NCBI GenBank assembly: GCA_013824835.1
Contig: PNOM01000051.1
Span: 1 to 22,098 of the forward strand
Direction of reading: 5' to 3'
DNA length: 22,098 nt
Origin: Syntrophus sp. (in: bacteria)
GTDB taxonomy: Bacteria > Desulfobacterota > Syntrophorhabdia > Syntrophorhabdales > Syntrophorhabdaceae
The notes beneath the pieces are model-generated. The model made no database searches and was not told the DNA's origin. It saw only the letters and a program-made list of their open reading frames with translations. Of the stretch, positions 4,953 to 21,299 are shown piece by piece (position 1 is the first letter of the stretch; each line of letters starts with the position of its first letter). Made by a program: the position numbers and the translations under genes.

Positions 4953-5083
4953 GTCTTATCCTCTTTGATTCTTTCCCGCATTATAGCATTATTGCATCGC
5001 ACATACTAAATTTATGATTATTATGCATAAAACAGGTATTTTGAGTCGTCTATGGTTTAACCTATATAGGAGGTTTACCGTAT

Positions 5084-6259: not shown

Positions 6260-6310
6260 GTGGTTGTTTTTCCAAAGATATCCATTTATTATGTGATTGA
6301 AGGGGTAAAG

Positions 6311-7291
6311 ATGAAAAAGATTAATCTTGTTATCTTCGTATGTTTGTTGATTGTCGTTTCTGTTTTCGGGATCGCCGAAGGTGCAGATGATCTGAAGCCA
6401 GAGGCTTTGAAGAACCTTCAAAAGTCTGTGGTAAAGGCATTGCCTGTTGAAGGAAACATTGTCCGCATTGCAGTTCTTGATTTTAAGGGCGATGATGGTA
6501 CTGTCAAAAATGCCGTAATTTCAATTATCACGGAAAAAACCCCTTTTAAGGTCATAGAGCGGACAGACCTTGACAAGATTCTCAACGAGCAGGGTCTTCA
6601 ACTGAGAGATGTCATGGATGAAAAGACGAGGATACGGCACGGCAGATTAAAAGGCGTACAGGGGTTGCTCATGGGCAAAGTCCAGGGTATGGAGAAGGGC
6701 TTTATGTCCTATACGATCAAGGTTCATCTGAAGCTTGATGATGTAGAAAGAGGAGAAATTGTCTTTTCAAAGGATTTTAACGTCAGCGCGGTTTCACCCT
6801 TGAGGAAGATCCTTTTTGTTGTAATTGCTGTTTTTATGGCAGGGATCATTGTAATAATGTTCCTCGCAAGGAGAAAGGGTTCAATAAAGGAATCGGTAAT
6901 AAGCAAGGATGTAAAAGCCCGGGCCGATCTCACAATGGAAATGAATAAAGCCTTGACGATTGTGGGAGAGACAAAAAAGAGGCTCATGGATAAAGGAAGG
7001 ACAGATGAGGCAGTACTTCTGAAGGATGCTGAAAGAGACCTGCTTTTTCTTAAAGAGAGTATTAATAATGCAGCAAGAGGGAATGGAGGAACAGGGAGCG
7101 TAACAGGGCTGAAAGAAACTCTTAAGTTTGATAAGGGGTTTGCCGATTCCGTTCAGAACCTTTCCAGGATTTCAGGGATGCTTCACGATAACGTAATATC
7201 GGGAAGCTCAGGATCTCTCGAAAGAGAGATAGATAGCTTCAGGAGAAATATCAAGATTGCAATGAACGGATTCGGCAACCAGCGGCCATAA
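6311..7291 (+). CDS. Bitopic membrane protein with a periplasmic CsgG/LpoB-like domain and a cytoplasmic coiled tail
   Basis: ATG 6311 preceded by GAAGGGG. It has a signal peptide (MKKINLVIFVCLLIVVSVFGIAEG). The motif IAVLDFKGDDG...FKVIERTDLDKILNEQGLQL matches the conserved core of the CsgG/LpoB/TolB-N fold. A TM helix follows (ILFVVIAVFMAGIIVIMFL) with a C-terminal tail of about 150 aa. The ORF track's GTG 6260 extension is less likely. Confidence 0.65.
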   Translation: MKKINLVIFVCLLIVVSVFGIAEGADDLKPEALKNLQKSVVKALPVEGNIVRIAVLDFKGDDGTVKNAVISIITEKTPFKVIERTDLDKILNEQGLQLRDVMDEKTRIRHGRLKGVQGLLMGKVQGMEKGFMSYTIKVHLKLDDVERGEIVFSKDFNVSAVSPLRKILFVVIAVFMAGIIVIMFLARRKGSIKESVISKDVKARADLTMEMNKALTIVGETKKRLMDKGRTDEAVLLKDAERDLLFLKESINNAARGNGGTGSVTGLKETLKFDKGFADSVQNLSRISGMLHDNVISGSSGSLEREIDSFRRNIKIAMNGFGNQRP

Positions 7292-7357
7292 TGGAAGCCC
7301 TTCTTCAGCCGTCATTGTTTGTATGCTTTTCGAAGATGAATGAAAAAGGGGGTACCC

Positions 7358-8875
7358 ATGGCAGGAATAATTCGATGCAGCAAAGGACATGAAAACATTG
7401 AGGGCGATAATTTCTGCAGATTTTGCGGAGAAAGGATAGGTGTCGTCGAGACACCGCCGCCTATTGCGGGCATGTTGTGGCAGAGAGGCGCCAATGATTT
7501 TGTTACGAGGATTGATACCGACGACCTGCAGGGAATCCTGAAAAAAGGCATAATCATTGAACAAAGCACAAAGGCGCTCCTTTTCATTAACGGTACTCTC
7601 GCTGAAACTCTGTATCCTGGAAAGTATGACCTCGGGGGCCTCACCGGCATACTCAGGCCTTTTGAACCGTTCAGGACTGTTACAGCCCTCCTTGTTGACT
7701 CGGGTGATATTGAGTTTCCCTTTACCGTAACTGACGTATACACAAATGATCCTCTGAAGATTGGTGTTAGTTGCAAGATTATCATACAGATTGAGAACCC
7801 TGTTGTATTTCTTAACAATGTAATGAAGGGGAGAAAAAATTATCTCATCGGCGAGATCAGGGGTGCCCTCTATGACGAGCTGCAGAATGCGCTCAATGAA
7901 ACGGTGGGTAAAAAATCGTTAATTGACCTTAACTGGGATCTGTCCTTAAAGCAACAGTTTGAGGTCCAGGTGGAAAACCATCTCAGGACAACCTTCCAGC
8001 GGATGGGGTTGAGTTTAATCCAACTCAGGACCATAGATTACCGTTTCCAGGCCTTTGACAAAATCAGGGGTGTCTATGAAGAAATCTATCTTCAAGTGAG
8101 TGAAGAGGAAGCCCTTCTTCAGAAGAGAAAGCGGTTGTTTGATCTCTATGACCACAATCAGATTCAGGGCATTATCGAAGACACGAAAGAGCTTGAATAC
8201 AGGGAACAAAGGCAGAAGGTATGGGCCAACATGAGGCGCCTTGTCAATTCTGACAAGATGGATGATGTTAAGTCTGCCGATGACCTTGAAGCCTTTATTC
8301 ATGAAATGGATAAAGGGAAAATACTGCGGGATGAAGAGGTAAAAGACCTTGCGAATACCTTTGCCCAGAGCGGCCTGAGAAGAGATTTTCTGTTAAGTAA
8401 AATGCAGCTTGAGCAGGGGCTTGAGGCCCAGAGGATTCAGATGCTGGGCGCGGCTGAAAACGATCTGGCAGAATGGGAAATCCGGGCCAGGAAAGAACGG
8501 GAAGAGCTGGACATGAGCCTTGAAGGTCTTGAACGGGTTAAAAAAATAAAAACCCAGGAAAAACGTGAAGAAACGGATATTGAAATCGAAAGAGTGGGGC
8601 GTCTTACCCAATTGGGCGTTGAGGCGTTAATTCACGCCTCAGGTGTGGAGCAGGCGCAGATATTGGCAGACCTCAAGAAGACTGAAATATTAAAAGACCT
8701 GCCTGATGAAAAGATACTTGCCCTGGGGGCAAAGGATTCACCTGAGCTTGCGAAGGCCTTTCAGGAGAAATTCAGAGGGTTTTCATCGGATCTCCAGAAG
8801 AAAATGTATGAGGAGATGATGGAACAAAAAGATCAGTCCATGCGAATATTGCTGGAGATGTTTAATAAGAGATAA
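7358..8875 (+). CDS. SPFH/band-7 (flotillin-like) protein with an N-terminal zinc ribbon and a C-terminal coiled coil
   Basis: CSKGHENIEGDNFCRFCG is a zinc ribbon. The SPFH core is present (IIIEQSTKALLFINGTLAETLYPGKYDL ... TVTDVYTNDPLKIGVSCKIIIQIENPVVFLNNV). A long charged helical C-terminus resembles flotillin. SD AAAGGGGG lies 6 nt upstream of ATG 7358; the alternative ATG is at 7340. Confidence 0.75.
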   Translation: MAGIIRCSKGHENIEGDNFCRFCGERIGVVETPPPIAGMLWQRGANDFVTRIDTDDLQGILKKGIIIEQSTKALLFINGTLAETLYPGKYDLGGLTGILRPFEPFRTVTALLVDSGDIEFPFTVTDVYTNDPLKIGVSCKIIIQIENPVVFLNNVMKGRKNYLIGEIRGALYDELQNALNETVGKKSLIDLNWDLSLKQQFEVQVENHLRTTFQRMGLSLIQLRTIDYRFQAFDKIRGVYEEIYLQVSEEEALLQKRKRLFDLYDHNQIQGIIEDTKELEYREQRQKVWANMRRLVNSDKMDDVKSADDLEAFIHEMDKGKILRDEEVKDLANTFAQSGLRRDFLLSKMQLEQGLEAQRIQMLGAAENDLAEWEIRARKEREELDMSLEGLERVKKIKTQEKREETDIEIERVGRLTQLGVEALIHASGVEQAQILADLKKTEILKDLPDEKILALGAKDSPELAKAFQEKFRGFSSDLQKKMYEEMMEQKDQSMRILLEMFNKR

Positions 8876-9092: not shown

Positions 9093-12000
9093 ATGGTCTG
9101 CACAAAATGTGGTAATAACAACACCGATGATGCGGTCTTTTGTGTAAGCTGCGGGGCAAATCTTACTGATCAGACCCCATCTCAAAAAAGGCCTGACAGC
9201 GGTTTTTCCCAGGACATTGACACTGCACCCGGAGACCCCTCTTCCCATGACAACCTCGACCGTCTCGCCCACACCTCTATAAAGGATAACCATGATGCCC
9301 GCGGTTCCGGAGGGGCCCGCATCCCTGCAAGAGAAGAGGGTCTTTTCTTTTCTGTAGGCTCCTTTTTTGCTTCCCGGTACGAGATTCTCTCAGAAGGGAA
9401 AAAGGGCGGCATGGGTGTTGTTTATAAGGTAAAAGATGCCAAGCTTAACAAAATAAAGGCTTTGAAGGTTATCCATCCGAGGCTCTTATCCTCCCCCCAG
9501 GCCCTGTCACGATTCAGGCAGGAAGTCTCCTTATCCCAGGATCTCCACCACCTCAATATTGTAAGTGTCTATGATCTTGATGAATACCATGGAAGAGAGT
9601 TTTTCACCATGGAGTGGATAGAAGGACCATCCTTAAGGGAACTCCTCGCAGAGAGGAGGAAGGAACATAAGCCTTTCACCCTGGAGGAAGCCTGTGCCAT
9701 CATTTCCCAGCTTTCCGATGCCCTCTCTTATGCCCATCAATACACCATCCATCGGGATATTAAACCGGAGAATATATTAGTACAGAGGTCAGCAACCAGC
9801 AATCAGAAAACAAGAGAGACCATCCCCACCATTCCCCCTTTCGCAAAGGGGGAATTTATCCTCAAATTAACCGACTTTGGCATTGCCAAGATGCTCTCCC
9901 CGGCAGAGCTCATTACCACATCCCTTCAGATGGGTACTCCCTACTACATGGCGCCGGAGCAGAAGCTTGATGCTGCACATGTTGACCATAGAGCTGATAT
10001 CTATGCAGCAGGGGTAGTGTTCTTTGAACTTCTTACCTTAGAGAACACCATAGGGCCTGATCTTCCCAGTGAACTCAATTGTGCTGTCCCAAAAGAAGTA
10101 GATGGCATCTACCGGAAAGCGGTTGCGACAAAACCGGAGAACCGATGGGGAGAGGTAAGGGAACTATCTCAAGCCCTCCACACCATAATTATCGCGGAGA
10201 GGAGAAAGAGTGAGGAGGGGGTATGGAAGGAGGGATGGCATAGGAAAACCGATGCCAAAGAGAGAACAGGAAAAGAGACGGGAGAGGTTGGAAGGAAGAC
10301 GATTGAGAATGAATGTCTCACGGTGGAAACTGAAGAGACAGAGTTGAGAAGGTTGGGGGAAGAGAGACTTCGCACAGAAAACAAAGAGAAAAAAAGAGCG
10401 GAAGAAGAGAAGAATAGAATCGAAGAGGAGGGACTGCGCAAGGAAACAGAGGAAAGGAGGCGGAAAGAAGAGGAAAAGCGCCTCCTGAGGGAACAGGAGG
10501 AGGCTGAAAAACAGATTCTGACGGATGAACTCAAGGGACAGAAAGAAAGATCAAGAAAGCGATCAAGGATTATTCTTATTAGTTTCTGCATCTTTGGGGC
10601 AATGGTGCTCCTTGCGTCGGCTATCGGATATGTCTCCTACCGCCACGCACAGCAGCAGGTTGTCCTAACCCGGCAGCTTGAAAAAGAGAAAAGGGAAAAA
10701 GAACAATTAACAGAAAGGCAGAAGGCGATAGAAGCAAAACAGCAGGCAGACCTGCAGAGGCTGGAAGAACAAAGGAAACATGAAGATCGAAAAATATATG
10801 TTGATGAGAAAAAACAGGAAGGCCGGATAAAACAAGGGCAGTTGCTTCTTCGGAAGGCTCGGGCTTCTATAAAAAAGGGAAACCTCTCAGATGCACGAAG
10901 TTATCTCGAAGAGGCAAAGGGGTTTATTCCGGATGATAAGAATGTTGTAAGTATGGCCAATATCATTGAGAATGAAGAGAAAAAACAGAAAGTTGCTGTA
11001 GACAGGCAGCGCCAGTATGAGGAGGAAAAACGGGCAGAAGAACAAAAACGGGCAGAAGAACAAAAACGGGCAGAAGAACAAAAAAGAAAAGAAGCAGAAG
11101 AAAAAAGGGTTGCTGAAGAACAAAGGCTTGCAAGAGAGCGAAAGATTGCAGAGGAACAAAAAGTTGCAAGGGAACGAAAGGCAGAGGAGGAACGAAGGCT
11201 TGCAGAACAGAAAAGACAGAAGGAAGAACAAAGGCTTGCAAGAGAGCGAAAGGCGGCGGAAGAGCTTGCCGAAAAACAGAGAGCTGCTGAAGCTAAATGG
11301 CAGGGGGGTATAATAAAACTGAATTACACTAATTTTTTCCCGGCTACACACCTTCAAAGCATCACTGCAGAGAAATGGTGCCGGGAAATAGAGAAAAAGA
11401 CCCGTAACAGGATTAAATTTGCCTATTATCCGGGAGGCGCCCTTACGCCGCCGCCTCAAACCTATGATGCCGTTGTGAAGGGTACTGCCGACATTGGAAT
11501 GAGTGTTTTTGCCTATACAAAAGGAAGATTCCCCCTCACGGAAGTTATTGATCTGCCCCTTGGTTATCGGAGCGGTCTTGTGGCAACAAGGCTGATAAAT
11601 GAATACTACAAAAGGTTTCGACCCAATGAGCTTGGTGATGTTAAAGTGCTTTATCTCCATGCTCATGGTCCGGGAATATTGCATACAAAGAGCCCTGTAT
11701 ACAGGCTTGAAGACTTGAGTGGCATGAAAATAAGAGCTACAGGACCGGCAGCAAAAATTGCGCCCGCCCTTGGGGCTGCGCCTGTGGCCATATCGATGCC
11801 GGAGGCATATGACGCCCTCCGCACCGGTGTTGCAGAGGGGGCTTTTGTTCCCATTGAGGCCCTCCTGGGCTGGAAATGGGGTGAAGTTATAAATTCGACA
11901 ACCCAATGTTTCGGCGTTGCATATTCAATCGGCATGTTTGTTGTGATGAATAAAACAAAGTGGAATTCCCTTCCCCCGGATATTCAAAGGATTTTTGAAC

Positions 12001-12245
12001 AGGTCAGCGCCGAATGGATAGAAGTTCAGGGCAGGGCATGGGATGAAATAGACAAAAAGGGGAGAGAATTTACTTTAAGAAGGGGTAATAAACTTATTCC
12101 CTTATCTCAAGAGGAAGATGCACGATGGACTGCAAGAGTACGGCCACTCCTTGATGAATATGTAAGAAATACAAGATCAAAGGGGCTTCCTGGAGATGAA
12201 GCATTGAAATTCTGCCTTGATTACCTTGCCAGGCATAAGAGATGA
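9093..12245 (+). CDS. Ser/Thr protein kinase with an N-terminal zinc ribbon, one TM segment, a KE-rich helical stalk and a C-terminal DctP/TRAP-type solute-binding domain
   Basis: The zinc ribbon is CTKCGNNNTDDAVFCVSCG. Kinase motifs are GKKGGMGVVYKV, ALKVI, HRDIKPENILV, DFGIAK and PYYMAPE. The TM helix is IILISFCIFGAMVLLASAIGYV (about nt 10566-10635). KE-rich repeats include EEQKRAEEQKRAEEQKR. The C-terminal domain resembles DctP (IKLNYTNFFPATHLQS...KFAYYPGGAL...DAVVKGTADIGMSVFAYTKGRFPLTEVIDLPLGY ... ALRTGVAEGAFVPIEALLGWKWGEV). Confidence 0.85.
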   Translation: MVCTKCGNNNTDDAVFCVSCGANLTDQTPSQKRPDSGFSQDIDTAPGDPSSHDNLDRLAHTSIKDNHDARGSGGARIPAREEGLFFSVGSFFASRYEILSEGKKGGMGVVYKVKDAKLNKIKALKVIHPRLLSSPQALSRFRQEVSLSQDLHHLNIVSVYDLDEYHGREFFTMEWIEGPSLRELLAERRKEHKPFTLEEACAIISQLSDALSYAHQYTIHRDIKPENILVQRSATSNQKTRETIPTIPPFAKGEFILKLTDFGIAKMLSPAELITTSLQMGTPYYMAPEQKLDAAHVDHRADIYAAGVVFFELLTLENTIGPDLPSELNCAVPKEVDGIYRKAVATKPENRWGEVRELSQALHTIIIAERRKSEEGVWKEGWHRKTDAKERTGKETGEVGRKTIENECLTVETEETELRRLGEERLRTENKEKKRAEEEKNRIEEEGLRKETEERRRKEEEKRLLREQEEAEKQILTDELKGQKERSRKRSRIILISFCIFGAMVLLASAIGYVSYRHAQQQVVLTRQLEKEKREKEQLTERQKAIEAKQQADLQRLEEQRKHEDRKIYVDEKKQEGRIKQGQLLLRKARASIKKGNLSDARSYLEEAKGFIPDDKNVVSMANIIENEEKKQKVAVDRQRQYEEEKRAEEQKRAEEQKRAEEQKRKEAEEKRVAEEQRLARERKIAEEQKVARERKAEEERRLAEQKRQKEEQRLARERKAAEELAEKQRAAEAKWQGGIIKLNYTNFFPATHLQSITAEKWCREIEKKTRNRIKFAYYPGGALTPPPQTYDAVVKGTADIGMSVFAYTKGRFPLTEVIDLPLGYRSGLVATRLINEYYKRFRPNELGDVKVLYLHAHGPGILHTKSPVYRLEDLSGMKIRATGPAAKIAPALGAAPVAISMPEAYDALRTGVAEGAFVPIEALLGWKWGEVINSTTQCFGVAYSIGMFVVMNKTKWNSLPPDIQRIFEQVSAEWIEVQGRAWDEIDKKGREFTLRRGNKLIPLSQEEDARWTARVRPLLDEYVRNTRSKGLPGDEALKFCLDYLARHKR
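11041..11094 (+). repeat. Perfect 3 x 18 bp in-frame tandem repeat (ACGGGCAGAAGAACAAAA, encoding RAEEQK) inside the kinase stalk
   Basis: Three identical 18 bp units are seen directly. Degenerate 36 bp repeats of about 180 bp follow (11095-11275) and encode (AEEQRLARERK)n. TTGCAAGAGAGCGAAAG occurs twice. Confidence 0.9.
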
Positions 12246-13492
12246 TGGATAAAGAAGCCGAAACCAACATCATGGCAGATCACCTTAAGACCGGGGAATG
12301 TTCTGCTGAAACCATCCAGAAGCAGATGCCCGTCATCGTCTCAGACCTTTCTGCCCTTTACGAAATCATACGGTCCAATCCGGATATAAAAGCCCGGAAA
12401 GATGCTGCAACCCATCTGCTCGGCCTTGTTGATACATATGAAGATATTGATGTGGATATGATAACAGAGGTCTACAGATCTGAGAGAGAGATTGCGGTTG
12501 CCACGGTATTGAAAAGGGTTTTGAACAAATTACAGATCAAGCAGATCCTTACCCATGACCCGACCGAGGGGTATGATCCGAGGCTTTCCCCTGAAGAAGA
12601 GTTAAAAATAAACGAAGAGATCAAAAGACTCAAAAGGCTTTATGATACGTCGAAGAAGGAAGAAGGCTCCTTTGACCGGAAATACAGCATTGTTCAGCAT
12701 ATTGATCAGGGAGGGATGGCTAAGATTTATAAAGGGATAAAGCTTGATGACAATCAGCCCGTTGCTATAAAGTTCCTCCTCCTTGAAGAACTTTCTCACC
12801 ATATTAATCCGGAAAGACTGATTGCACGGTTCAGGAGGGAAGGCGAGCTTCTGACAAAAAGGCTGAAGCATCCTAACATTATTAAGGCATTCGAATACGG
12901 TGAAGCTGATAAGGAATATTATATTGTCCTGGAGTATGTTGAAGGGGAAACCCTTGAAGGCATGATTAAACAAAAGCCCCTTGATCTCGATAATTTTAAA
13001 AAGGTTGCCCTGCAGATCCTTGATGCCGTCGAATATATCCACGGAAATGACGTGATACACAGGGACATAAAACCGGGGAATATACTTGTTGAACGGTCAG
13101 CGGTCAGCGGTCAAACATTAGAGGAAGCCCGTTGGTGTACAATCAAACTTGCCGATTTTGGGCTCGCGAAGGACAAATATGATAAGAAGCTTTCAAAGCT
13201 TTTCTTTCAGGGAGGGACCGACCTCTATTCATCCCCCCAGCAGTTGAGGGATACGCGGGATGTTGATGAAAGAGATGATATCTTCTCCGTGGGCAAGACA
13301 TTATACGAGATGCTCACAGGAAAGACCTTTACCAATGATGAGTCGTACATGCCTATGGTCCTGGAAAACGACCTCCTTTCCCAAGAGGTCAACACTGTTA
13401 TCCGGAAGTGTCTTAGTCATGAACGGCAGGACAGGTATCGGAATATACATGAATTGAGGAGCGCCTTGCTGGGCGCCCTTCGGGCAGCATAA
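12242..13492 (+). CDS. Ser/Thr protein kinase paralog (cytoplasmic, N-terminal domain of about 130 aa of unknown function)
   Basis: ATGA overlap with the upstream kinase gene. Kinase motifs are DQGGMAKIYKG, VAIKFLL, HRDIKPGNILV and DFGLAK. It shares an unusual RSA(T/V)S insertion between the catalytic loop and DFG with the upstream kinase. The APE motif is replaced by SPQ. Confidence 0.85.
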   Translation: MMDKEAETNIMADHLKTGECSAETIQKQMPVIVSDLSALYEIIRSNPDIKARKDAATHLLGLVDTYEDIDVDMITEVYRSEREIAVATVLKRVLNKLQIKQILTHDPTEGYDPRLSPEEELKINEEIKRLKRLYDTSKKEEGSFDRKYSIVQHIDQGGMAKIYKGIKLDDNQPVAIKFLLLEELSHHINPERLIARFRREGELLTKRLKHPNIIKAFEYGEADKEYYIVLEYVEGETLEGMIKQKPLDLDNFKKVALQILDAVEYIHGNDVIHRDIKPGNILVERSAVSGQTLEEARWCTIKLADFGLAKDKYDKKLSKLFFQGGTDLYSSPQQLRDTRDVDERDDIFSVGKTLYEMLTGKTFTNDESYMPMVLENDLLSQEVNTVIRKCLSHERQDRYRNIHELRSALLGALRAA

Positions 13493-13527
13493 AAACTGGT
13501 TCCAATTAATTAAAAGATAGAGCAAAC

Positions 13528-14301
13528 ATGGACGAGAAGAAACGTATTTATATAAAGGTGGATTCCATCATTAAAGAGGACGGCAAATCCTCCTATATCG
13601 GCGAGGATGATTATGTGAGCCTTACAAAAGATGGAATTATCATCCATTTCCATATTAAAAATCCTTCCATCCATATGGAGAATGTCTTGAGGACAGTAAA
13701 ACGGGCCCAGAAGATCGTAAGGGACCGCCTTGACTATGAACTCGAAAATATTGATATCAGTATTTACGGGTCAAAAGAGGAACTCAGACAGGAAGGCAGG
13801 TCAAGGAGTGTATATGCTTCATGGATAGCGGGAATATTTGATGGAAAAATCAGGATTATTGCTGATGGAGGGGAAGAAGATCCGGAAGCGCTCTATATTG
13901 TCCTGACTCACGAGATTATTCATCTTGCAGTATTTCATATAGGCCAGGGGCAATGCCCTTACTGGATGGAAGAGGGAGTGGCTGTGTATCTTTCCCAGGA
14001 GCTCCCGGACCAATACCTCCATGCACTGAAAAAGGCGATTAAGTCCGATAGAATACTGCCCCTTGATGCCCTGAAAACCCCCCTCCCCGTTGATGTTGAC
14101 CTGGACATACGTCAGCTTCTCTACTCGGAAACATCCAGCATCGTCGAGTACCTTGTGGAATCCTACGGCTGGGATGCAGTCAAGTCCATAATCCGGCAAT
14201 GCAGACAGGTGAAATTCAGCGAACTGTTAGCCGGCCTGAGTCTCAATCACTATCTTTTAGAACAGGGGTGGAAAAGGTGGTACAGGAATAAAAATGCATA
14301 A
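13528..14301 (+). CDS. Peptidase_MA-like (gluzincin-type HExxH...E) domain protein
   Basis: THEIIHLAVFH (HExxH) is followed by WMEEGVAVYL, with the third-ligand Glu in an EGxAxY context as in the Peptidase_MA_2 family. No signal peptide is visible. Confidence 0.6.
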   Translation: MDEKKRIYIKVDSIIKEDGKSSYIGEDDYVSLTKDGIIIHFHIKNPSIHMENVLRTVKRAQKIVRDRLDYELENIDISIYGSKEELRQEGRSRSVYASWIAGIFDGKIRIIADGGEEDPEALYIVLTHEIIHLAVFHIGQGQCPYWMEEGVAVYLSQELPDQYLHALKKAIKSDRILPLDALKTPLPVDVDLDIRQLLYSETSSIVEYLVESYGWDAVKSIIRQCRQVKFSELLAGLSLNHYLLEQGWKRWYRNKNA

Positions 14302-14336
14302 AATTCCCTTCAAAATAGTCCTAATAGGAGCGGGCA

Positions 14337-14930
14337 ATGATAGATTTTAAATCTATTACAGATGAAGACCTTTACGGGATGTGTGCTTCGGGAGACGAAG
14401 GAGCCTGGAGATATTTGTATAACTATATACTGAAGATATGCGAATGGAGCAGGATTGATGATCCTGAAGATATGGCGAGCACCGTAACCCTGGAACTCAT
14501 AGAAAGGGCCCTGAAAAAGGTCAGGCATAAAGACAAATTCAGGAGTTTTGTAAAGGTGATGACGAAAAACAGGATCATTGACAGTTTCAAGTCCTCCTCA
14601 AAGAAAGAAATACCTATGAGCAGCTTTATAAAAGATGATGACGAGGATGGGGTAACCCCGGAGATAGGACGCCAGGAGCCTGATCAGATAGAAAGCCTTT
14701 TTCGAACCGAGATTGCTGCTATAGTAGACGCAGCCATAGAGAAGCTCCCGATAAGGTGCCGGAATATTATCCGGGAATATTTGAATTTCAAAAAGGGGCT
14801 CTATGACAATTACGAGGAGCTGAGCAGGGTGCTTGAAATGCCGGTCCCGACCATATCTTCCAGTGTCAGCAGATGCATGAAGATATTGGTTAATTATAAA
14901 GAAATCAAGACATTAAAAACGTTTGCATAA
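14337..14930 (+). CDS. Divergent ECF-like sigma factor
   Basis: Weak region 2 (FRSFVKVMTKNRIIDSFKS) and region 4 (LPIRCRNIIREYLNFKKGLYDNYEELSRVLEMPVPTISSSVSRCMKIL) similarity. It is followed by a zf-HC2 ORF. Confidence 0.5.
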   Translation: MIDFKSITDEDLYGMCASGDEGAWRYLYNYILKICEWSRIDDPEDMASTVTLELIERALKKVRHKDKFRSFVKVMTKNRIIDSFKSSSKKEIPMSSFIKDDDEDGVTPEIGRQEPDQIESLFRTEIAAIVDAAIEKLPIRCRNIIREYLNFKKGLYDNYEELSRVLEMPVPTISSSVSRCMKILVNYKEIKTLKTFA

Positions 14931-14942
14931 AGGGAGGCTGCC

Positions 14943-15386
14943 ATGAAATGCAATGAGATCAATTTTATCGAATATATAGAAGGCAGAGCCTCGGAAAAGA
15001 CTGAGGCCCATATAAAGGAGTGCAGGAAATGTCAGAAAGAATCTGTTAAGTTTTCCAGGTTTGTTAATCTTATTACCCCGATGTGGGCAGCGGGCAGGGC
15101 GCTTGAAGCAGAGCTTGACAGGGACCTCCAGTCAATGGATCCAAGAAAGATGAAATATCTTCCCGATACTATTTCTAAAAAGGTAACAGAGCTAAGGGAA
15201 AGAAGCATTGTCGGGAAACTCAAAAGGGTACTCGGCAGAGGGAAGGAAAATGCCCAGGAGCTTATTGATGGTATTATGAGCCCCCGGGCCCACGCAGTAC
15301 CGGCCAGTCCCGCTGATCTCACAAAAACCGGGAAACCAAAGGGGAAGAAGGCGCCTATCCGGAAGAAAGGTCCTGAAAGCAAGTAA
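14943..15386 (+). CDS. Putative cytoplasmic anti-sigma factor (zf-HC2-like) with a basic C-terminal tail
   Basis: HIKECRKCQ is an Hx3Cx2C motif near the N-terminus, and the gene sits immediately downstream of the sigma-like gene. There is no TM segment. The C-terminus is KPKGKKAPIRKKGPESK. Confidence 0.45.
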   Translation: MKCNEINFIEYIEGRASEKTEAHIKECRKCQKESVKFSRFVNLITPMWAAGRALEAELDRDLQSMDPRKMKYLPDTISKKVTELRERSIVGKLKRVLGRGKENAQELIDGIMSPRAHAVPASPADLTKTGKPKGKKAPIRKKGPESK

Positions 15387-15437
15387 ATCCTCTTTTCTTG
15401 GCAGCCTTTTCTGCATAAACTTCTTATCCTCCTCCGT

Positions 15438-15470
15438 CCTTAATAGCATCGCCACACTATTAAGGAGGGG
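15438..15470 (+). promoter_or_regulatory. Hairpin that can sequester the SD of the downstream small membrane protein gene
   Basis: CCTTAATAG (15438-15446) pairs with CTATTAAGG (15457-15465). The second arm overlaps the SD AAGGAGGGG (15462-15470), which lies 5 nt before ATG 15476. Confidence 0.35.
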
Positions 15471-15475
15471 ATGTC

Positions 15476-15784
15476 ATGAATCCTGTAATAAACACGGCAT
15501 TAGTAGCATCTGTTTTCGGTGTTTTCGGGTTTTTTCTTGCCTTTTCCCTGAAACGGGCAACCAACATCATCGTCTTCGGCATTTTTGCCTATGCCTCTTT
15601 TAAAGCCCTGGATTATCTTGGCGTGACAACGGACTGGAAGCTTTTCGATAATTTTGTCCATACCTTCACGCAGCTCGGGAGGACAACCCTTGATCTGATA
15701 AGCGGGGTATTGAACACGGCCACCTTTATCTCCGTGGCATGTTTTCTCTGTGGCGGTGTATCTGGTCTTCTCTTGAGGAAGTAG
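15476..15784 (+). CDS. Small 3-TM membrane protein (possibly FUN14-like)
   Basis: 102 aa with three hydrophobic helices and a strong SD. The Gly-rich TM pattern resembles the FUN14 family, but the assignment is weak. Confidence 0.55.
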   Translation: MNPVINTALVASVFGVFGFFLAFSLKRATNIIVFGIFAYASFKALDYLGVTTDWKLFDNFVHTFTQLGRTTLDLISGVLNTATFISVACFLCGGVSGLLLRK

Positions 15785-15790
15785 GCCCTT

Positions 15791-17167
15791 GTGGAACGAA
15801 CATCTGAATTGAAATATCTTCTCCCGGTACTGCTGGTGATCAGCATTGCCTTTCTGCTCCTTCAGTCAAGCTATGGGGACAGAAACATTCCCATATCGAT
15901 TGCAACCTTAAAGGGCGGCCTTGATATTTCCGATTACTTTCTTACCCCACTCCCTAACGCAATACATGCTTCTTTGTTTGTGGCCCTTTTTATGCTTACT
16001 CACATCTATCTGAGAATTAAACTTCCCGGCGCTGATCCCTTTATCCTGCCTGCCGTGGCCCTTCTCTCCGGCATTGGGCTGATTATGGTACTCCGGCTCT
16101 CTCCTGACCTTGCAATTTCCCGGAATGAGGTGCTCCTCTCTGTCTTCAGCAGGGCGCCCGATGCAACTATTACAGACAATGTCCACACCCTCGTCCAAAT
16201 GGGCATGAGACATTTTATCAATATTGTGCTGGGCATACTGGTATTGATCGGTGCATTGAATGGATTTAACAAACGGGCTTTCTCCTGGCTTTCGTCAAAG
16301 AAATACTGCTGGGTGCTCCTTTCAGCAGTTCTCATAACAGTCACCCTTCTTTTCGGTACCAAAATTAACGGGAGGAAGCTCTGGATATTCGGTTTTCAGT
16401 CTGTGGAAGCGGTAAAACTGATGATGCTCTTTTTTGTTTCAGGATATATCTACGAAAAGGGAAAGGGCATCGAGCTTTACCGGCAGGGGGGCTTCAAGCA
16501 CTGGCTCGGCTACGCGGTGCCTTTTGTGGCTATGTGGTTCTTTGCCCTGGTACCCCTTTTTATCCAGAAAGACCTCGGCCCTACGGTTTTGATTTTTGTT
16601 GTCCTCCTCCTCATGTTCTCCTATGCAGGCAACCGCAGTACAGTGACTATGCTCTTTATTCTATTGACCCTGTCAGCAGGGTTTATTTCTTATAACATCG
16701 GCTATCCATCTATTGTCCGGGAGAGGTTTGACATGCTCCTTGACCCCTTTGGGAGAAGCGAGGCAATGACAAGGGTGCTCTGGGCAATATCTTCCGGAGG
16801 TCTCATGGGTACAGGCATCGGGTATGGTCAGCCCCACAGGATCCCTGAGGTGCAGTCAGATTTTAACTTTACCGCCATCTGCGAAGAGATGGGATTTGTC
16901 GGCGCCATTTCTATCATCCTGGGGTATGCCCTTTTCCTCCATAGATGTTTCAAGATTGCATCCGCTGCAGAAAATGTATACAAAAAGACTCTCGTTGTCG
17001 GCATTGGCACATTAACCGGGATGCAGGCATGTATTATCATTTGCGGGAATCTGAATATAATACCCTTAACGGGAATCACCCTTCCCTTTATCAGTTACGG
17101 GGGAAGTTCACTCATAGTCAATTTTCTTATGGCAGGTATTGTGCTCAAAATATCCGGGGAAAAATAA
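15791..17167 (+). CDS. SEDS-family peptidoglycan glycosyltransferase (RodA/FtsW)
   Basis: Multi-pass membrane protein with the diagnostic C-terminal motif NLNIIPLTGITLPFISYGGSSLIVNFLMAG. GTG start at 15791. The stop overlaps the PBP start (TAATG). Confidence 0.88.
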   Translation: MERTSELKYLLPVLLVISIAFLLLQSSYGDRNIPISIATLKGGLDISDYFLTPLPNAIHASLFVALFMLTHIYLRIKLPGADPFILPAVALLSGIGLIMVLRLSPDLAISRNEVLLSVFSRAPDATITDNVHTLVQMGMRHFINIVLGILVLIGALNGFNKRAFSWLSSKKYCWVLLSAVLITVTLLFGTKINGRKLWIFGFQSVEAVKLMMLFFVSGYIYEKGKGIELYRQGGFKHWLGYAVPFVAMWFFALVPLFIQKDLGPTVLIFVVLLLMFSYAGNRSTVTMLFILLTLSAGFISYNIGYPSIVRERFDMLLDPFGRSEAMTRVLWAISSGGLMGTGIGYGQPHRIPEVQSDFNFTAICEEMGFVGAISIILGYALFLHRCFKIASAAENVYKKTLVVGIGTLTGMQACIIICGNLNIIPLTGITLPFISYGGSSLIVNFLMAGIVLKISGEK

Positions 17168-18978
17168 TGGCCATCTATAGATTGAGGGTCATCACGGTCC
17201 TCTTTGTTGTGCTTGCAGGGGTTGCAGCCTATTCCCTTTTTGACAGGATGATTCTGAAAAAGGATGAGATTGTCTCTACCCGCTACAGGGATAAAAAGTT
17301 CACTGACCTTATGAAGGGTCTTATCAATGAAGGGATCATCAAAACAACGGGGGAAGAGATTGCTATAGATGAAGAACTGCTTATTGCGAAAGGTCTTAAC
17401 AAAAAGACGGCGGACCGGGTAAGGCGGAGCATAAAGTTCTGCTATATGAAGAAAGATGCCCTCTATTTTGACGGCCAATCAGTTTCAGTGCTCAATAACA
17501 GGGGTTCGGGAGATGAAACTGTTTTACGGGGAAGCATCATGGATAGAAACGGGATTACCCTTGCAAAGAGCACCCTTGACGAAAAGGCATGGAAATTAAA
17601 ACGGGAGTACACATACGGGCCTGAGATGTTTCCTGTAGTAGGGCATTACAGCGCTGTTTACGGCAGCCGGTATCTGGAAAAGGAATTGGATAGATATCTC
17701 AGCGGCCAATCTCATGACCCCATATATTTGACTACGAATGACCCCTTCAAGAAGGTCAGGCTCGGGGACGAAGTAACGCTGACCATAAACAACAGGATAC
17801 AAAAGTTTGCCTATGATCTTATGGATGGTAAAAAAGGTGCTATAGTGGTCCTTGACGTAAGGACAGGGGAAATTCTTGCGGCAGTCAGCACCCCGTCCTT
17901 TGACCCGAATACAAAGGAAGGGGATACATGGAGAAACACATTTGCAGACAGGAAAGAGAGGCTCTATGAAAACAGGGCCTTTGGAGCACTCTATCCGCCG
18001 GGTTCAACCTTCAAGACTGTTGTTGCGTCCGCATGGATCGACAGGAGTGAAGGTAAAAGGCAAGCATCAAGCTCCCTTTTTCAGCGAACCGCCGCAGATG
18101 GGGAATCCCAGGGCCGTGCCGGGCATGTCACCATGTGCAGCAGCAAAAAGAACAGGTATGATATTTCGGATATTCATACCCATGGAAGAGTGGATATAGA
18201 CAGGGCGCTCATTGTGTCCTGCAATCAGTTCTTCAGTGAAATCGGGGTGACCCTCGGCCCGGAAATGGTCAAATACGCCGAAGGATACGGGTTCAACAGA
18301 GGTATAGAGCTTGTCCCTCAGTTGAAGGACCTTCATTGCAGCGCCACACCGAGCCTCGCCCTTTCATGGCAGGAGGACCAGGCCAAGGGCGCTGGAATAA
18401 AGACCTATCATGGTAAGGATTTCAGAAGAAACCCGAAGATAGTTGCCCAGGGCGCCATAGGGCAGAACCTTGTTGTTGCCACCCCCCTCCAGATGGCCAT
18501 GGTGGCGGCAGCGATTGCAAATAAGGGTACTGTTCTCAACCCCTACCTGGTAAAAGAGATTAAAACAGGAGATAACTGGGAAAGAATATTTTCCGCAAAA
18601 CCTGTAGTTATGGGCAAGACTGTTCGGGAAGAGACTGCTGAAAGGTTAAGAAGCCTCATGGCAAGGGTCATGGAGAGCGGGACAGGGAAAAACGTTAAAA
18701 AGGTCTATATTGAAGGGGGGAAACATACCACATCCCCAAAGGACAATAAATCGCCCATCCTGAGGGTTGCAGGCAAGACAGGCACTGCCGAGGTAGGTGA
18801 CAGGAATAACAACGGAATCATAGACCCTGATGAGAATGCCCATTCATGGTTTATAGGTTTCGCACCTGCCGATAATCCGAGGATTGCCATTGCGGTCATT
18901 GCAGAAAACCAGGGCCTCGGGGGCCTCACCGCAGCACCTATTGCTGTAGAGGTAATGGCAGAGGCATTGAATCGATGA
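17167..18978 (+). CDS. Class B penicillin-binding protein (PBP2/FtsI-type transpeptidase)
   Basis: N-terminal TM anchor (VITVLFVVLAGVAAYSLF) and the motifs SxxK (GSTFKTV), SxN (SCNQFF) and KTGT (GKTGTAEV). The true start is ATG 17167, coupled to the SEDS gene. The upstream in-frame extension from 16945 in the ORF track overlaps the SEDS gene. Confidence 0.88.
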   Translation: MAIYRLRVITVLFVVLAGVAAYSLFDRMILKKDEIVSTRYRDKKFTDLMKGLINEGIIKTTGEEIAIDEELLIAKGLNKKTADRVRRSIKFCYMKKDALYFDGQSVSVLNNRGSGDETVLRGSIMDRNGITLAKSTLDEKAWKLKREYTYGPEMFPVVGHYSAVYGSRYLEKELDRYLSGQSHDPIYLTTNDPFKKVRLGDEVTLTINNRIQKFAYDLMDGKKGAIVVLDVRTGEILAAVSTPSFDPNTKEGDTWRNTFADRKERLYENRAFGALYPPGSTFKTVVASAWIDRSEGKRQASSSLFQRTAADGESQGRAGHVTMCSSKKNRYDISDIHTHGRVDIDRALIVSCNQFFSEIGVTLGPEMVKYAEGYGFNRGIELVPQLKDLHCSATPSLALSWQEDQAKGAGIKTYHGKDFRRNPKIVAQGAIGQNLVVATPLQMAMVAAAIANKGTVLNPYLVKEIKTGDNWERIFSAKPVVMGKTVREETAERLRSLMARVMESGTGKNVKKVYIEGGKHTTSPKDNKSPILRVAGKTGTAEVGDRNNNGIIDPDENAHSWFIGFAPADNPRIAIAVIAENQGLGGLTAAPIAVEVMAEALNR

Positions 18979-19240: not shown

Positions 19241-19531
19241 ATGAACCTTGTAAATCTATTGAAAGAAAAACGAGTCGCGATACTGGCCACGGCGAAACGG
19301 CACGGCGCCCGGCACGTGAGAATCTTCGGATCTGTTGCACGAGGTGATTTTGACGAAAAAAGCGATCTGGATTTTCTTGTAGAAATGGAACCTGGCAGAA
19401 GCCTTCTTGACCGTGCCGCCCTCCTGCTCGATTTAGAGAAACTTCTTGGATGCAAGGTTGATGTAGTGAGCGACAAAGGGATAAAATCTCGTATGCGTGA
19501 ACGTGTGTTCAGGGAGGTTCAACCGTTATGA
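19241..19531 (+). CDS. mntA: MntA-type nucleotidyltransferase antitoxin (type VII TA)
   Basis: GSVARGDFDEKSDLDFLV is the Pol-beta NTase motif (GS...D.D). The stop overlaps the hepT start (ATGA). Confidence 0.85.
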   Translation: MNLVNLLKEKRVAILATAKRHGARHVRIFGSVARGDFDEKSDLDFLVEMEPGRSLLDRAALLLDLEKLLGCKVDVVSDKGIKSRMRERVFREVQPL

Positions 19532-19879
19532 GAAATAATAGCGAGCGTGTCCTTGACATGCTGGAGGATATTGAGCACATTGAACGATATTCAGAAAAAG
19601 GACCCGATGTTTTCAAAAAAGATGAACTTATACAGACCTGGGTTGTATATCATCTTCAGATTATCGGCGAAGCGGCATCAAAACTGGGCCATGCTTTTCA
19701 TGACACCTACCCGGAAACCCCATCCTCAGATCATTGCCATGCGGAATTTGCTCACTCACGAATACTTTGGAGTTGACCTCGACGAAGTCTGGCAGGTCGT
19801 GGAGCGCGATTTGCCAACATTAAAACAAAGACTGCACAGAATAAGTGAGGAACTTTGTCCGCCGAGCAATCATGATTAA
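19528..19879 (+). pseudogene. hepT: HepT (DUF86) RNase toxin, disrupted by a +1 frameshift
   Basis: The N-terminal half is in frame 1 (LEDIEHIERY...YHLQIIGEAASKL...YPETP). The C-terminal half carries the Rx4HxY active-site motif (RNLLTHEYFGVD) and is in frame 2. The switch is at the CCCC run at 19718-19721. Removing one C gives a continuous YPETHPQIIAMRNLLTHEYFGVD. Confidence 0.75.
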
Positions 19880-20705: not shown

Positions 20706-21299
20706 ATGAAAATGGCAACCAATTTTCCCGAATTTATCAGAGACAATTACGAAATTCATGAGTGGCGGCACGCATGTGCGATTCTCACGAGAGACTTTCC
20801 GGATGAGTATTCTGAAGTCTGCGATGTTTTGACGCGCTTCCGCCTCCAGAGGAGTCATATCGTAGTCGGAGGAGGAAGAAAATCCAAAGTAGCTGATTGG
20901 ATTGATTCTGAACTTGCAAGGAAAGGGTGGGTCGAGAAGAATTTCAACACAAGCATCACTGTTGACGACAACATCATGAATTCGCCCACACACGCTGTAG
21001 ATTGTTTCAAAAACCGCATAGCCCTCGAAATTGAGTGGAACAACAAAGATCCGTTCTTTGACAGAGACCTGAACAACTTCAGACTGCTGTTTGATTTGAG
21101 GGCAATTTCTGTCGGGATCATCATAACGAGATGCGACGAGTTGCAAGAAATATTCGATTCACTGGGCCGCGGCAAGTCCTACGGGTCCTCGACAACTCAC
21201 ATGTCCAAACTACTTCCGCGGATTGAAGGCGGCGGCGGAGCGGGCTGCCCACTTATAGTATTTGGTATAAGGAGAACGCTATATGCCGAAGATCACTAA
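20706..21299 (+). CDS. Type II restriction endonuclease, BamHI/BglII-like fold
   Basis: AVDCFKNRIALEIEWNN has D-x9-E-x-E spacing like BamHI D94/E111/E113 (EFETGN). GIIITRCDE resembles BamHI IILMPIK, and GCPLIVFGI resembles BamHI PFIFIGF. It overlaps the MTase gene by 17 nt. Confidence 0.65.
   Translation: MKMATNFPEFIRDNYEIHEWRHACAILTRDFPDEYSEVCDVLTRFRLQRSHIVVGGGRKSKVADWIDSELARKGWVEKNFNTSITVDDNIMNSPTHAVDCFKNRIALEIEWNNKDPFFDRDLNNFRLLFDLRAISVGIIITRCDELQEIFDSLGRGKSYGSSTTHMSKLLPRIEGGGGAGCPLIVFGIRRTLYAEDH

Follow-up and report, generated by a model that had tools for sequence, protein, structure and literature searches.

A probable Desulfobacterota version of the actinobacterial SEDS/PbpA-kinase cluster on a Syntrophus contig

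We analyzed a cluster of Ser/Thr kinase, sigma factor and peptidoglycan synthase genes at positions 9093-18978 of contig PNOM01000051.1, from a metagenome-assembled genome (MAG) of Syntrophus sp. The window, as the analyzed stretch is called here, is the whole contig of 22,098 bp. Its host is placed in the Thermodesulfobacteriota, Syntrophia, Syntrophales, a diderm background, and the Gram-negative setting supposed in the first-pass annotation holds. The + strand carries every large open reading frame (ORF), from 238 to 21960. Eight genes had been proposed as an envelope-growth signalling system running in one direction, and all eight are found in that order.

9093-12245, + strand: STK1, a receptor Hanks kinase of 1050 aa with a Zn-ribbon, a kinase domain (Pkinase, 127.9 bits), a transmembrane (TM) segment and a DctP domain (147.1 bits)
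12242-13492, + strand: STK2, a soluble Hanks kinase of 416 aa (Pkinase, 153.9 bits)
13528-14301, + strand: HExxH protein, gluzincin-type and metallopeptidase-like (Peptidase_MA_2, 50.3 bits, cut-off 32.4), called the peptidase below
14337-14930, + strand: SigL, a divergent sigma factor of the extracytoplasmic function (ECF) type (TIGR02937, 62.5 bits, cut-off 42.9)
14943-15386, + strand: ASigL, an anti-sigma-like protein of 147 aa of the zf-HC2 type (zinc-binding anti-sigma, ZAS), with an Hx3Cx2C motif and no TM segment
15476-15784, + strand: small membrane protein of 102 aa with 2-3 TM segments, ending 6 nt upstream of the SEDS gene
15791-17167, + strand: SEDS-family peptidoglycan glycosyltransferase (FTSW_RODA_SPOVE, 163.7 bits, about 10 TM segments)
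17167-18978, + strand: PbpA-type class B penicillin-binding protein (PBP) of 603 aa (Pfam PBP_dimer_2 and Transpeptidase, N-terminal TM segment)

The gaps between the genes of this block are -4 to 89 nt, and those flanking it are 217 nt and 262 nt. An ATGA overlap joins the end of STK1 to the start of STK2. The PBP gene is present as proposed but not with the start listed for it: position 16945 would give a 223-nt overlap with the SEDS gene, and the real start is the ATG at 17167, which forms TAATG with the SEDS stop codon. At NCBI the SEDS protein is C0392_10255 and the HExxH protein C0392_10235 (both at 100% identity).

The synthase pair had been labelled RodA and PBP2, and neither label fits when the proteins are scored against curated NCBIfam/TIGRFAM equivalog cut-offs. 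The SEDS protein is an equivalog of neither FtsW (TIGR02614, 181.7 against a cut-off of 337.5; NF008042, 87.3 against 493) nor RodA (TIGR02210, 136.9 against 336.7; NF008060, 69.5 against 590), and its identity to the E. coli proteins FtsW and RodA is 28-34%, over partial alignments only. The PBP2 label is a misnomer. The PBP stays under the cut-offs for pbp2_mrdA (TIGR03423, 238.9 against 455; NF008061, 99.3 against 962) and for the FtsI model (41.5 against 737), and its dimerisation domain is of the PbpA type (PF21922). Its closest solved relatives are the actinobacterial PbpA-like 4mnr, 4n1x and 4jbf and M. tuberculosis PbpA (3lo7, 3un7), with MrdA ranking behind. The motifs STFK at 280, SCN at 351 and KTG at 537 are intact.

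A housekeeping rodA-pbp2 (mrd) operon that merely lies beside unrelated signalling genes would agree with the best NCBIfam matches, which include pbp2_mrdA and the RodA/FtsW models. Those scores, however, are only about half of the curated cut-offs, and the N-terminal domain of the PBP is PbpA-type rather than PBP2/FtsI-type. No mreBCD genes are found in the 22-kb window or in the 20-kb loci of the relatives compared below, and no dcw genes (mur, mraY, ftsQAZ) in the window near the pair. Also arguing against such an operon are three results detailed below: over 12 related loci the pair stays linked to kinases, FHA, PP2C, peptidase and sigma, a common motif ties the genes together, and the next SEDS matches are from Chloroflexi and not from canonical Desulfobacterota RodA/FtsW. 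We consider it very improbable. The window pair shares with canonical RodA-PBP2 and FtsW-FtsI the combination of a SEDS polymerase and a class B transpeptidase but differs in the unmet family cut-offs and in having no mreBCD/dcw context. It is probably an accessory synthase, distinct from both the MreB-linked RodA-PBP2 and the divisome FtsW-FtsI.

To place the SEDS protein we searched 5.8 billion proteins. About 100 homologues are at least 37% identical to it, and those with a name are from Syntrophales, Syntrophorhabdaceae, Desulfobacterales and Desulfotalea. The next matches are those from Chloroflexi. A genome scan with the SEDS alignment gave at least 80 loci at 30-39% identity from Chloroflexota, Actinomycetota, Firmicutes (including the diderm Selenomonadaceae) and a few other phyla, with a Verrucomicrobiales MAG among them; a metagenome scan with the SEDS protein gave two short loci only. 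Of the outside loci listed, 39 have at least 4 kb on each side and were annotated with seeds from the window system. They encode a PbpA-type PBP in 34 cases, FHA in 33, PP2C in 24 and a kinase in 24. All four are encoded together in 20 of the 39, in the order FhaA-FHA-PP2C-SEDS-PbpA-kinase. Genes for the peptidase, sigma and anti-sigma, and for the secreted, small membrane, CsgG-like and SPFH proteins described below, are found in none of these 39 loci. In a neighbour-joining (NJ) tree the 12 Desulfobacterota SEDS proteins form one clade, and the mean distance of the window SEDS is 0.71 to the FHA-linked SEDS of Terrabacteria versus 0.83 to E. coli RodA or FtsW. Because of the cut-offs, the PbpA domain, the context of the outside loci and the tree distances, we assign the pair to the actinobacterial rodA-pbpA lineage and not to mrdAB or ftsW-ftsI.

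The proposed mirroring of the actinobacterial rodA-pbpA-pknA-pknB locus is thus upheld by the PbpA-type PBP and by the nearest outside SEDS listed, which mostly lie in FhaA-FHA-PP2C-SEDS-PbpA-kinase clusters. As judged from the sequences, the likeness is one of homology and goes beyond analogy. Like the actinobacterial fhaA-fhaB-pstP-rodA-pbpA-pknA-pknB locus (M. tuberculosis Rv0014c-Rv0020c, also Corynebacterium and Streptomyces), the window has SEDS followed by a PbpA-type PBP, co-directional with two Hanks kinases. The Desulfobacterota relatives also have FhaA (FhaA_N plus FHA), a small FHA-like protein and PP2C upstream of SEDS in the same order. Unlike the actinobacterial locus, the window lies in a diderm host, is without FhaA, FhaB, PstP and PASTA, and has a DctP sensor. 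The 39 Gram-positive-type loci listed differ in turn by having no Peptidase_MA_2, no ECF sigma/ZAS anti-sigma and no envelope-module genes, and the modules of the Desulfobacterota clade, unlike the actinobacterial locus, are joined by a shared promoter-like motif.

To determine how well the gene set is conserved, we compared 12 related loci (L001-L004, L006 and L087-L093; comparison stretches are numbered L001-L093). Their SEDS identity to the window is 37-66%. One is from Desulfotalea psychrophila LSv54, whose genome is complete (CR522870), and another from a contig of 5.5 Mb (ENA ERZ21831265 ctg82165c). All were re-annotated by phmmer with seeds from the window and L001-L003, and the surroundings of peptidase homologues were examined as well. 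The SEDS gene is kept with PbpA in 10 of the 12, with FhaA or a small FHA protein in all 12, with PP2C in nine and with kinases in 10; the linkage to kinases is kept wherever the visible flank suffices. Six relatives, in addition to the window, have the peptidase and six the sigma/anti-sigma pair, and a module of secreted, CsgG-like and SPFH genes is present in five to six of the 12 plus the window. Whether the genes stay linked in relatives had been set beforehand as the synteny check on the first-pass annotation, and kinase, peptidase, sigma/anti-sigma and SEDS-PBP do stay linked, down to 37% SEDS identity. Compared with its orthologues the window peptidase is 58% and 44% identical, the sigma 51% and 27% and the anti-sigma 44% and 31%.

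The fullest arrangement is in L092, on the 5.5-Mb contig. There the secreted protein, the CsgG-like and SPFH-like proteins, an STK2-like kinase, the peptidase, sigma and anti-sigma are followed by FhaA, a small protein, PP2C, a TPR kinase, SEDS, PbpA and an SLT/LysM gene. This is the order of the window with FhaA-small-PP2C added. L003 and L089 agree with L092 from the STK2-like kinase on. L001 starts with peptidase-sigma-anti-sigma, followed by FHA proteins, FhaA-small-PP2C-SEDS-PbpA and a second FhaA, and continues with a Zn-ribbon kinase carrying an Lcl_C ectodomain, the secreted protein, the small membrane protein, the CsgG-like protein and a DZR-SPFH protein. L002, L006 and L091 combine the FhaA-PP2C-SEDS-PbpA core with the secreted/small/CsgG-like/SPFH module. 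In L002 and L091 the peptidase is elsewhere on the same contig, as judged from contigs of equal size; for 13 peptidase homologues the longest contig equals in size that of a SEDS homologue. L093, from Desulfobacteraceae bacterium A6, has peptidase-sigma-anti-sigma-SEDS-PbpA-FhaA and, like the window, neither FhaA nor PP2C upstream of SEDS. In Desulfotalea (L004) the peptidase gene (11566-12201) lies between SEDS and PbpA, with its start and stop overlapping theirs. FhaA is encoded upstream. On the downstream side come a CsgG-like protein, a DZR protein, a kinase resembling STK2 and PP2C, and there is no sigma/anti-sigma pair within 10 kb of the cluster.

Several smaller features of these loci were also seen. 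The small proteins between FhaA and PP2C (L001 8980-9231, L002 8946-9200, L006 3469-3774) open with an FHA-like 'YLIGR...CDI.L' and have no Pfam match. From this opening they may be the counterpart of actinobacterial FhaB; no such protein is encoded in the window. In L090 (10001-13386) SEDS is followed by an FGE-sulfatase kinase with no PBP within 10 kb, and giant proteins with caspase, FGE-sulfatase and PEGA domains are around it. In L091 (14087-15675) all that is left of the membrane kinase is a Zn-ribbon stub of 101 aa, with an AAA_14/DUF4143 ATPase behind it, an insertion-like arrangement.

Upstream of STK1 the window encodes three further proteins whose genes belong with the cluster.

5084-6259, + strand: unk391, a secreted protein of 391 aa with a signal peptide and a weakly FlgT_N-like N-domain
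6260-7291, + strand: CsgG/LpoB-like envelope protein, with its likely start at ATG 6311 followed by a signal peptide
7340-8875, + strand: zinc-ribbon plus SPFH/Band_7 protein (Pfam Band_7, 47.3 bits)

Orthologues of unk391 are 42-46% identical in L001, L002, L006 and L091 and 28% in L092, and always stand beside the CsgG-like gene. Five of six orthologues have weak FlgT_N matches; a profile of the family gave nothing usable against the Protein Data Bank (PDB) sequences, and a single-sequence AlphaFold model (pLDDT 52) was too poor for a fold search. The CsgG-like protein matches Pfam CsgG at 34.5 bits (cut-off 20.8) and is 50% identical to its L001 orthologue, with a conserved neighbourhood that includes the SPFH gene. 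DZR-Band_7 orthologues follow the CsgG-like gene in L001, L002, L006, L091 and L092, and a related DZR protein stands in that place in L004. The small membrane protein of the window, encoded next to SEDS, is 30-32% identical to proteins of 106-109 aa encoded between the secreted-protein and CsgG-like genes of relatives. Since this module at 5084-8875 is conserved in the relatives, the system is larger than first noted: the 9093-18978 block stands, but its upstream boundary does not, and the system continues to about 5024. The co-conserved CsgG/LpoB-like protein recalls the outer-membrane control of PBPs by LpoA/LpoB, though its LpoB match (21.3 bits) is below the Pfam cut-off. LpoB acts on the class A PBP1b.

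An N-terminal zinc ribbon, CxxC-N12-CxxC, opens STK1, a 2xFHA protein, and 341/344-aa and 396-aa proteins of no assigned family, and the SPFH protein opens with a DZR-type Zn ribbon. The sites are 9099-9164 and 7373-7438 in the window, 4553- and 6696- in L001, 2112- in L003 and 1807- in L002. The shared ribbon may be a common docking module.

We then examined the genes between the kinases and the synthase. There is no TM segment or signal peptide in STK2, the peptidase, SigL or ASigL, and these four are therefore taken as cytoplasmic. A divergent ECF-like sigma paired with an Hx3Cx2C anti-sigma had been proposed, and profile comparisons support both. In SigL the TIGR02937 match spans aa 24-186 and covers the sigma-2 and sigma-4 regions only; Pfam Sigma70_r2 is weak. 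A profile of seven SigL orthologues matches solved ECF sigmas such as AlgU and sigma-E over nearly the full length (E 2.6e-5; 6in7 and 8z6g, and also E. coli sigma-E 1or7 and 6jbq). The window ASigL alone is below Pfam significance and its profile gave nothing usable against PDB sequences, but three of seven orthologues match Pfam zf-HC2 (PF13490; E down to 5e-4), and ASigL aligns with the N-terminus (906-1150) of a Pfam-confirmed zf-HC2 anti-sigma encoded at 906-2012 of the window (hhalign probability 90.8%, E 1.2e-6). The residues C3, H23, C27 and C30 (C3...H23xxxC27xxC30) are invariant in all seven orthologues. The C-terminus has an A-x-P-x-D motif (A121, P123 and D125 invariant), then [IL]-T-[KR] in five of seven, then a Lys-rich tail. 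The threonine of this D[IL]T[KR] stretch is a candidate phosphorylation site.

The extra HExxH protein of the first-pass annotation is a member of Peptidase_MA_2 (PF13485) by its score. Its motifs are HEIIH (aa 128) and WMEEG (aa 146), and the zinc-binding and catalytic set H128, E129, H132 and E149 (HExxH...E) is invariant in 38 homologues and also kept in Desulfotalea. In this HExxH plus downstream Glu it resembles the clan MA gluzincins and is a putative peptidase. Its AF2 model (pLDDT 82.6) gives a weak match, suggestive of a thermolysin-like fold, to the catalytic domains of M1 aminopeptidases (E 4.5e-4, TM score 0.48), and PDB sequences gave nothing usable. The family is tiny: the 77 homologues found, at 39-68% identity, all belong to the Desulfobacterota SEDS clade, and the gene is always directly upstream of the sigma gene where a sigma is present. 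Degradation of the anti-sigma by the peptidase is a conceivable function that we offer as hypothesis only. Because the Desulfotalea peptidase gene lies between SEDS and PbpA and the 10 kb around it hold no sigma gene, the protein might just as well work directly with the synthase.

Ser/Thr kinases recur near several ECF groups (PMC7826278). The window resembles the kinase-associated ECF sigmas, that is ECF43 and related groups, Xanthomonas PknS-EcfK and Vibrio PknT-EcfP, in having a Hanks kinase beside a divergent ECF sigma (PMC7826278, PMC13147305, PMC8999054). In Xanthomonas the Hanks kinase is reported to phosphorylate the ECF-type sigma directly (PMC13147305). The kinase-associated groups typically have no co-encoded anti-sigma (PMC7826278), unlike the window system, whose sigma always has a soluble zf-HC2 anti-sigma and the metallopeptidase-like protein next to it and where the putative regulon is a peptidoglycan synthase with envelope proteins. 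The combination of kinase, ZAS anti-sigma and peptidase is unusual. The window pair also shares the HxxxCxxC zinc anti-sigma and ECF pairing with mycobacterial RshA-SigH and RseA-SigE, but is encoded inside the wall locus. The mycobacterial pairs, in organisms where PknB-type kinases govern wall growth, are under PknB phosphorylation and are encoded outside the rodA-pbpA-pknAB locus.

Comparison of the intergenic DNA 3' of the anti-sigma gene in five loci revealed a promoter-like motif, TGCATAAA-N13/14-YCGTC(T/C)T. Exact matches to TGCATAAA-N14-YCGTC number two in the window against 0.01 expected from shuffles, and a weaker copy precedes the sigma gene.

5024-5050, + strand: TGCATAAA-N14-TCGTC, exact, ending 33 nt upstream of the secreted-protein gene
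15412-15438, + strand: TGCATAAA-N14-CCGTC, exact, ending 37 nt upstream of the small-membrane-protein/SEDS/PbpA genes
14295-14322, + strand: TGCATAAA-N13-TAGTCCT, weaker (position weight matrix, PWM, score 18.0), 14 nt upstream of the sigma gene and overlapping the peptidase stop codon

The first of these lies at the 3' end of a 610-bp gene-free gap (4474-5083) between the VIT-VWA and secreted-protein genes, which contains inverted repeats and has no Rfam match. Over the 93 loci the N13/14 pattern has 14 matches, all on the coding strand and all in L001, L002, L006, L087, L091 and L093; none is among the 80 listed outside loci (Actinomycetota, Chloroflexota, Firmicutes). A PWM scan of 13 clade loci gave 30 matches against 1.75 in Markov-random sequence, and 27 of the 30 are on the coding strand. 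The genes preceded by the motif in relatives are these:

sigma gene: L001 (3430) and L093 (810), exact
fhaA: L001, L006, L087, L091 and L093
SEDS gene: L093
second FhaA gene, right after pbpA: L001 and L091
secreted-protein gene: L001, L002 and L091, exact; L006, by PWM
CsgG-like gene: L002

Sites are 10-61 nt upstream of start codons, mostly 30-39 nt. A variant, YCRTAAGAAAA...YCGTCTTATATA, precedes fhaA in L003, L089 and L092. The peptidase stop codon falls within the -35 block of the sigma-gene motif, both in L001 and in the window.

ECF-type promoters have a CGTC -10 block, a fixed spacing and a fixed orientation, and a copy stands before the sigma's own gene. As the motif has these features, we regard it as the best indication of a single sigma-driven regulon made up of sigma gene, synthase operon and envelope module, with the co-encoded SigL as the factor presumed to read it. 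The linkage of the gene set itself is beyond chance, since related contigs keep these genes together and the motif is far above expectation.

The kinases would form the input side of the cluster. From its N-terminus STK1 consists of the Zn-ribbon (aa 3-24), the kinase domain (about 90-375), a charged linker, a TM segment (493-511), a 224-aa charged periplasmic linker and the DctP domain (about 740-1050). Its catalytic motifs are K125 (within ALK), HRD at 220, DFG at 261 and APE at 287. STK2 has an N-terminal domain of about 140 aa of no assigned type before the kinase domain, with K177 (within VAIK), HRD at 273, DFG at 305 and SPQ at 331. In both kinases the Gly-rich loop is degenerate while K/HRD/DFG are intact. 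The kinase and juxtamembrane part of STK1 is 48% identical to the L001 membrane kinase, which has an Lcl_C ectodomain. In L003, L089 and L092 an STK2 orthologue of about 400 aa is encoded on the upstream side of the peptidase, either next to it or one gene away, and L002 and L004 have others.

A DctP sensor in place of PASTA domains had been proposed for the receptor kinase. The DctP ectodomain is there (PF03480, 147.1 bits; NF037995, 90.5 against a cut-off of 50) and PASTA is not, the 192 bits with NF033483 PknB_PASTA_kin (cut-off 450) coming from the kinase domain only. The DctP part, about 310 residues, is 62-70% identical to many stand-alone solute-binding proteins (SBPs) of about 340 aa from the tripartite ATP-independent periplasmic (TRAP) transporters of Syntrophorhabdus and Syntrophus. 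The homology begins at the mature N-terminus of these SBPs (IIKLNYTNFFPA versus ITLNYSNFFPA) and runs in frame to their C-termini. These bounds are those of a mature SBP and indicate a genuine and evolutionarily young domain fusion. An assembly chimera or a read-through product was considered and rejected, as the homology starts right after the SBP signal peptide and ends at the C-terminus in frame. Among solved structures, TRAP SBPs of the Desulfovibrio type come closest (4n6d, E 3.5e-50; 4nap and 4pgn, E about 1e-50), and these may bind aromatic carboxylates. The arginine of the GxKxR motif is kept as R881 in GMKIRATG; in SiaP its equivalent binds the ligand carboxylate.

The ectodomain thus shares fold, sequence and the GxKxR arginine with the TRAP SBPs of the DctP family but differs in that the signal peptide is replaced by kinase, TM segment and the charged linker. 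It has no signal peptide of its own and no DctQ or DctM genes are found in the window, which argues for a sensor domain rather than a transporter subunit. In the relatives the ectodomains of the orthologous kinases are Lcl_C, rotamase, FGE-sulfatase or TPR. As they differ among relatives, the sensor is the variable part of a conserved system.

DctP domains of the same subfamily also occur elsewhere in multi-domain proteins, as checked by Pfam, with DctQ, a trypsin-like protease, PEGA, caspase (C14)/CARDB or BlaR1-M56 (P0318, P0319, P0335, P0354, P0365, P0369, P0370). Such architectures suggest that the binding domain may have been recruited repeatedly as a sensor. Tandem repeats of 18/36 bp at 11026-11252 encode AEEQKR three times in the periplasmic linker of STK1, of which 62% of the 224 aa are charged, and a 339-aa antisense ORF on the - strand at 10887-11906 is spurious, a product of the purine-rich coding strand.

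The kinases could also be read as parts of an anti-phage defence or conflict system with the cell-wall genes as bystanders. The PADLOC models PD-T4-6 and mad6 match both kinases, toxin-antitoxin (TA)-like and restriction-modification genes follow the PBP gene, and some relatives have caspase-domain proteins. The PADLOC and NCBIfam matches, however, are to the generic kinase domain only (MAD6, 117 bits against a cut-off of 460), and across phyla the kinases are syntenic with FhaA-PP2C-SEDS-PbpA. We reject this reading, to which we give hardly any probability, as the linkage to wall genes is conserved in relatives and that to TA and restriction-modification genes is not.

Taken together, the window probably holds the Syntrophales/Desulfobacterota version of the actinobacterial-type FhaA-PstP-RodA-PbpA-PknA/B cluster, an accessory synthase under sigma and kinase control. 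We give this reading a probability of about 0.6. The control could work as follows. A periplasmic ligand, probably a carboxylate, would bind the DctP domain and activate STK1. STK1 and STK2 would phosphorylate the anti-sigma and/or the sigma, and possibly the synthase pair. The anti-sigma would be inactivated, possibly with the help of the adjacent metallopeptidase, and TGCATAAA-N13/14-YCGTC promoters would let the freed sigma express itself, the small-membrane-protein/SEDS/PbpA operon and the envelope module. More peptidoglycan-synthesis capacity and a remodelled envelope would result. Control would then be at two levels, transcription through the sigma/ZAS anti-sigma pair and Ser/Thr phosphorylation as in the homologous actinobacterial module. 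All of these signalling steps are inferred. In Actinobacteria the locus is reported to tie PstP to cell-wall synthesis and division (PMC6554272).

A narrower version remains tentative, and we rate it well below the general reading. It holds that this is a diderm-specific regulon in which the kinase and/or the gluzincin frees the sigma to express a third SEDS/PbpA synthase together with the envelope module, with a metabolite as input through the kinase-fused TRAP domain. If true, substrate availability would be coupled to cell-wall synthesis in this Syntrophus.

Several results weigh against an accessory synthase under sigma and kinase control. Searches of the window by tblastn with FhaA/FHA and PP2C seeds found nothing below E 0.01, so two defining parts of the module are either supplied from elsewhere or dispensable. 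Downstream of PbpA the window has TA-like and restriction-modification genes and then the contig end, and FhaA and PP2C may lie beyond it, as FhaA lies after PbpA in L093. The kinase-DctP fusion was seen in no other protein among the best 150 of 1.84 billion representatives with full-length STK1 as query; it appears unique and is no general feature of the system. As kinase-associated ECF groups usually lack a co-encoded anti-sigma (PMC7826278), kinase and anti-sigma may belong to different pathways here. The -10 block of the window's sigma-gene motif is degenerate (AGTCC in place of CGTC), a scan of the window for consensus sigma-70 promoters and terminators showed no enrichment over shuffles, and a different sigma, or a regulator that binds DNA there, could be what recognises the motif.

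Some of the same observations would suit a sigma-driven back-up or stress-inducible synthase, with the kinases acting on the sigma switch or on unrelated targets and the synthase proteins not phospho-regulated. The synthase operon and the envelope module both have an ECF-type motif in front of them, with the weaker copy before the sigma gene, and the window is without FHA phospho-readers and PP2C. Partnerships of kinases with ECF sigmas are documented (PMC7826278; PMC13147305), and B. subtilis without class A PBPs is reported to raise elongasome function (PMC7478892). In nearly all relatives, however, FhaA and PP2C are encoded directly against SEDS, as in Actinobacteria, and Desulfotalea has kinase, PP2C, FhaA, SEDS, peptidase and PbpA but no sigma/anti-sigma pair in the 10 kb around them. 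In M. tuberculosis the FHA proteins and PbpA/RodA are kinase targets, which also counts against a synthase outside phospho-control. We regard the back-up synthase as unlikely, though it is the strongest of the alternatives.

A specialised morphogenetic or developmental synthase like SpoVE-SpoVD, serving filamentation, syntrophic aggregation or dormancy with the kinases and sigma as its switch, is less likely still. The pair would be a third and divergent SEDS/bPBP (class B PBP) pair, and the relatives' kinases have many alternative sensor ectodomains (Lcl_C, rotamase, FGE-sulfatase, TPR, DctP). Caspase-like and large multidomain proteins are encoded near the L090 and L091 loci, and genes for SLT/LysM lytic transglycosylases and S11 carboxypeptidases are nearby, some of them preceded by the motif. 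On the other side, the sequence does not discriminate a developmental from a stress or back-up role, the overlap with the sigma- and kinase-controlled accessory synthase is large, and we know of no developmental programme in Syntrophus.

Ser/Thr phospho-control of SEDS/bPBP pairs is a central theme in Actinobacteria and Firmicutes. Gram-negative models are dominated by outer-membrane lipoproteins and MreB/FtsZ scaffolds, and kinase control is hardly considered in them. The loci compared here indicate that in diderm Desulfobacterota a whole clade keeps the actinobacterial-type module. The clade has extended it with three parts, namely the sigma/anti-sigma switch, the metallopeptidase and the module of periplasmic and outer-membrane proteins, and one promoter-like signature is common to all. 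This shows how a signalling module is rewired when moved between monoderm and diderm envelopes, and would bear on how slow-growing anaerobes tune wall synthesis to outside signals. The swaps of the kinase ectodomain (DctP, Lcl_C, rotamase, FGE-sulfatase, TPR) are a natural experiment in sensor specificity. The predicted regulon, with its three predicted promoters, a single sigma and anti-sigma, and two kinases, is testable. Desulfotalea is the most tractable carrier but holds the system in part only.

Kinase-linked SEDS/PbpA modules are known. The novelty lies in a host clade that is diderm, in accessory genes conserved within it, in a promoter motif common to the modules and in an SBP-kinase fusion that appears unique. 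Our literature survey, which was incomplete and so gives absence of evidence, turned up actinobacterial and Firmicute work only, with nothing on a Desulfobacterota version of the cluster, nothing linking Peptidase_MA_2, ECF sigma or CsgG-like genes to SEDS/PBP, and nothing on what the nearest solved SBPs bind.

The remainder of the window encodes genes outside the system, and an Rfam search of the whole window found no RNA families. At 238-4473 there is a second, canonical ECF sigma (Sigma70_r2 plus r4_2), accompanied by a membrane anti-sigma of the zf-HC2/DUF2275 type and a secreted VIT-VWA protein. These three were seen together in no related locus and are without a copy of the TGCATAAA...CGTC motif. 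Directly 3' of the PBP gene, 19241-19776 encodes a nucleotidyltransferase (NTase; PF01909, PADLOC PDC-S09) and a small overlapping partner. A BglII-like restriction endonuclease and an MT-A70 type II methyltransferase follow at 20706-21960, before the contig end. L091 has VapBC and NTase/HepT pairs inserted just upstream of fhaA, and small defence/TA inserts thus recur at module boundaries.

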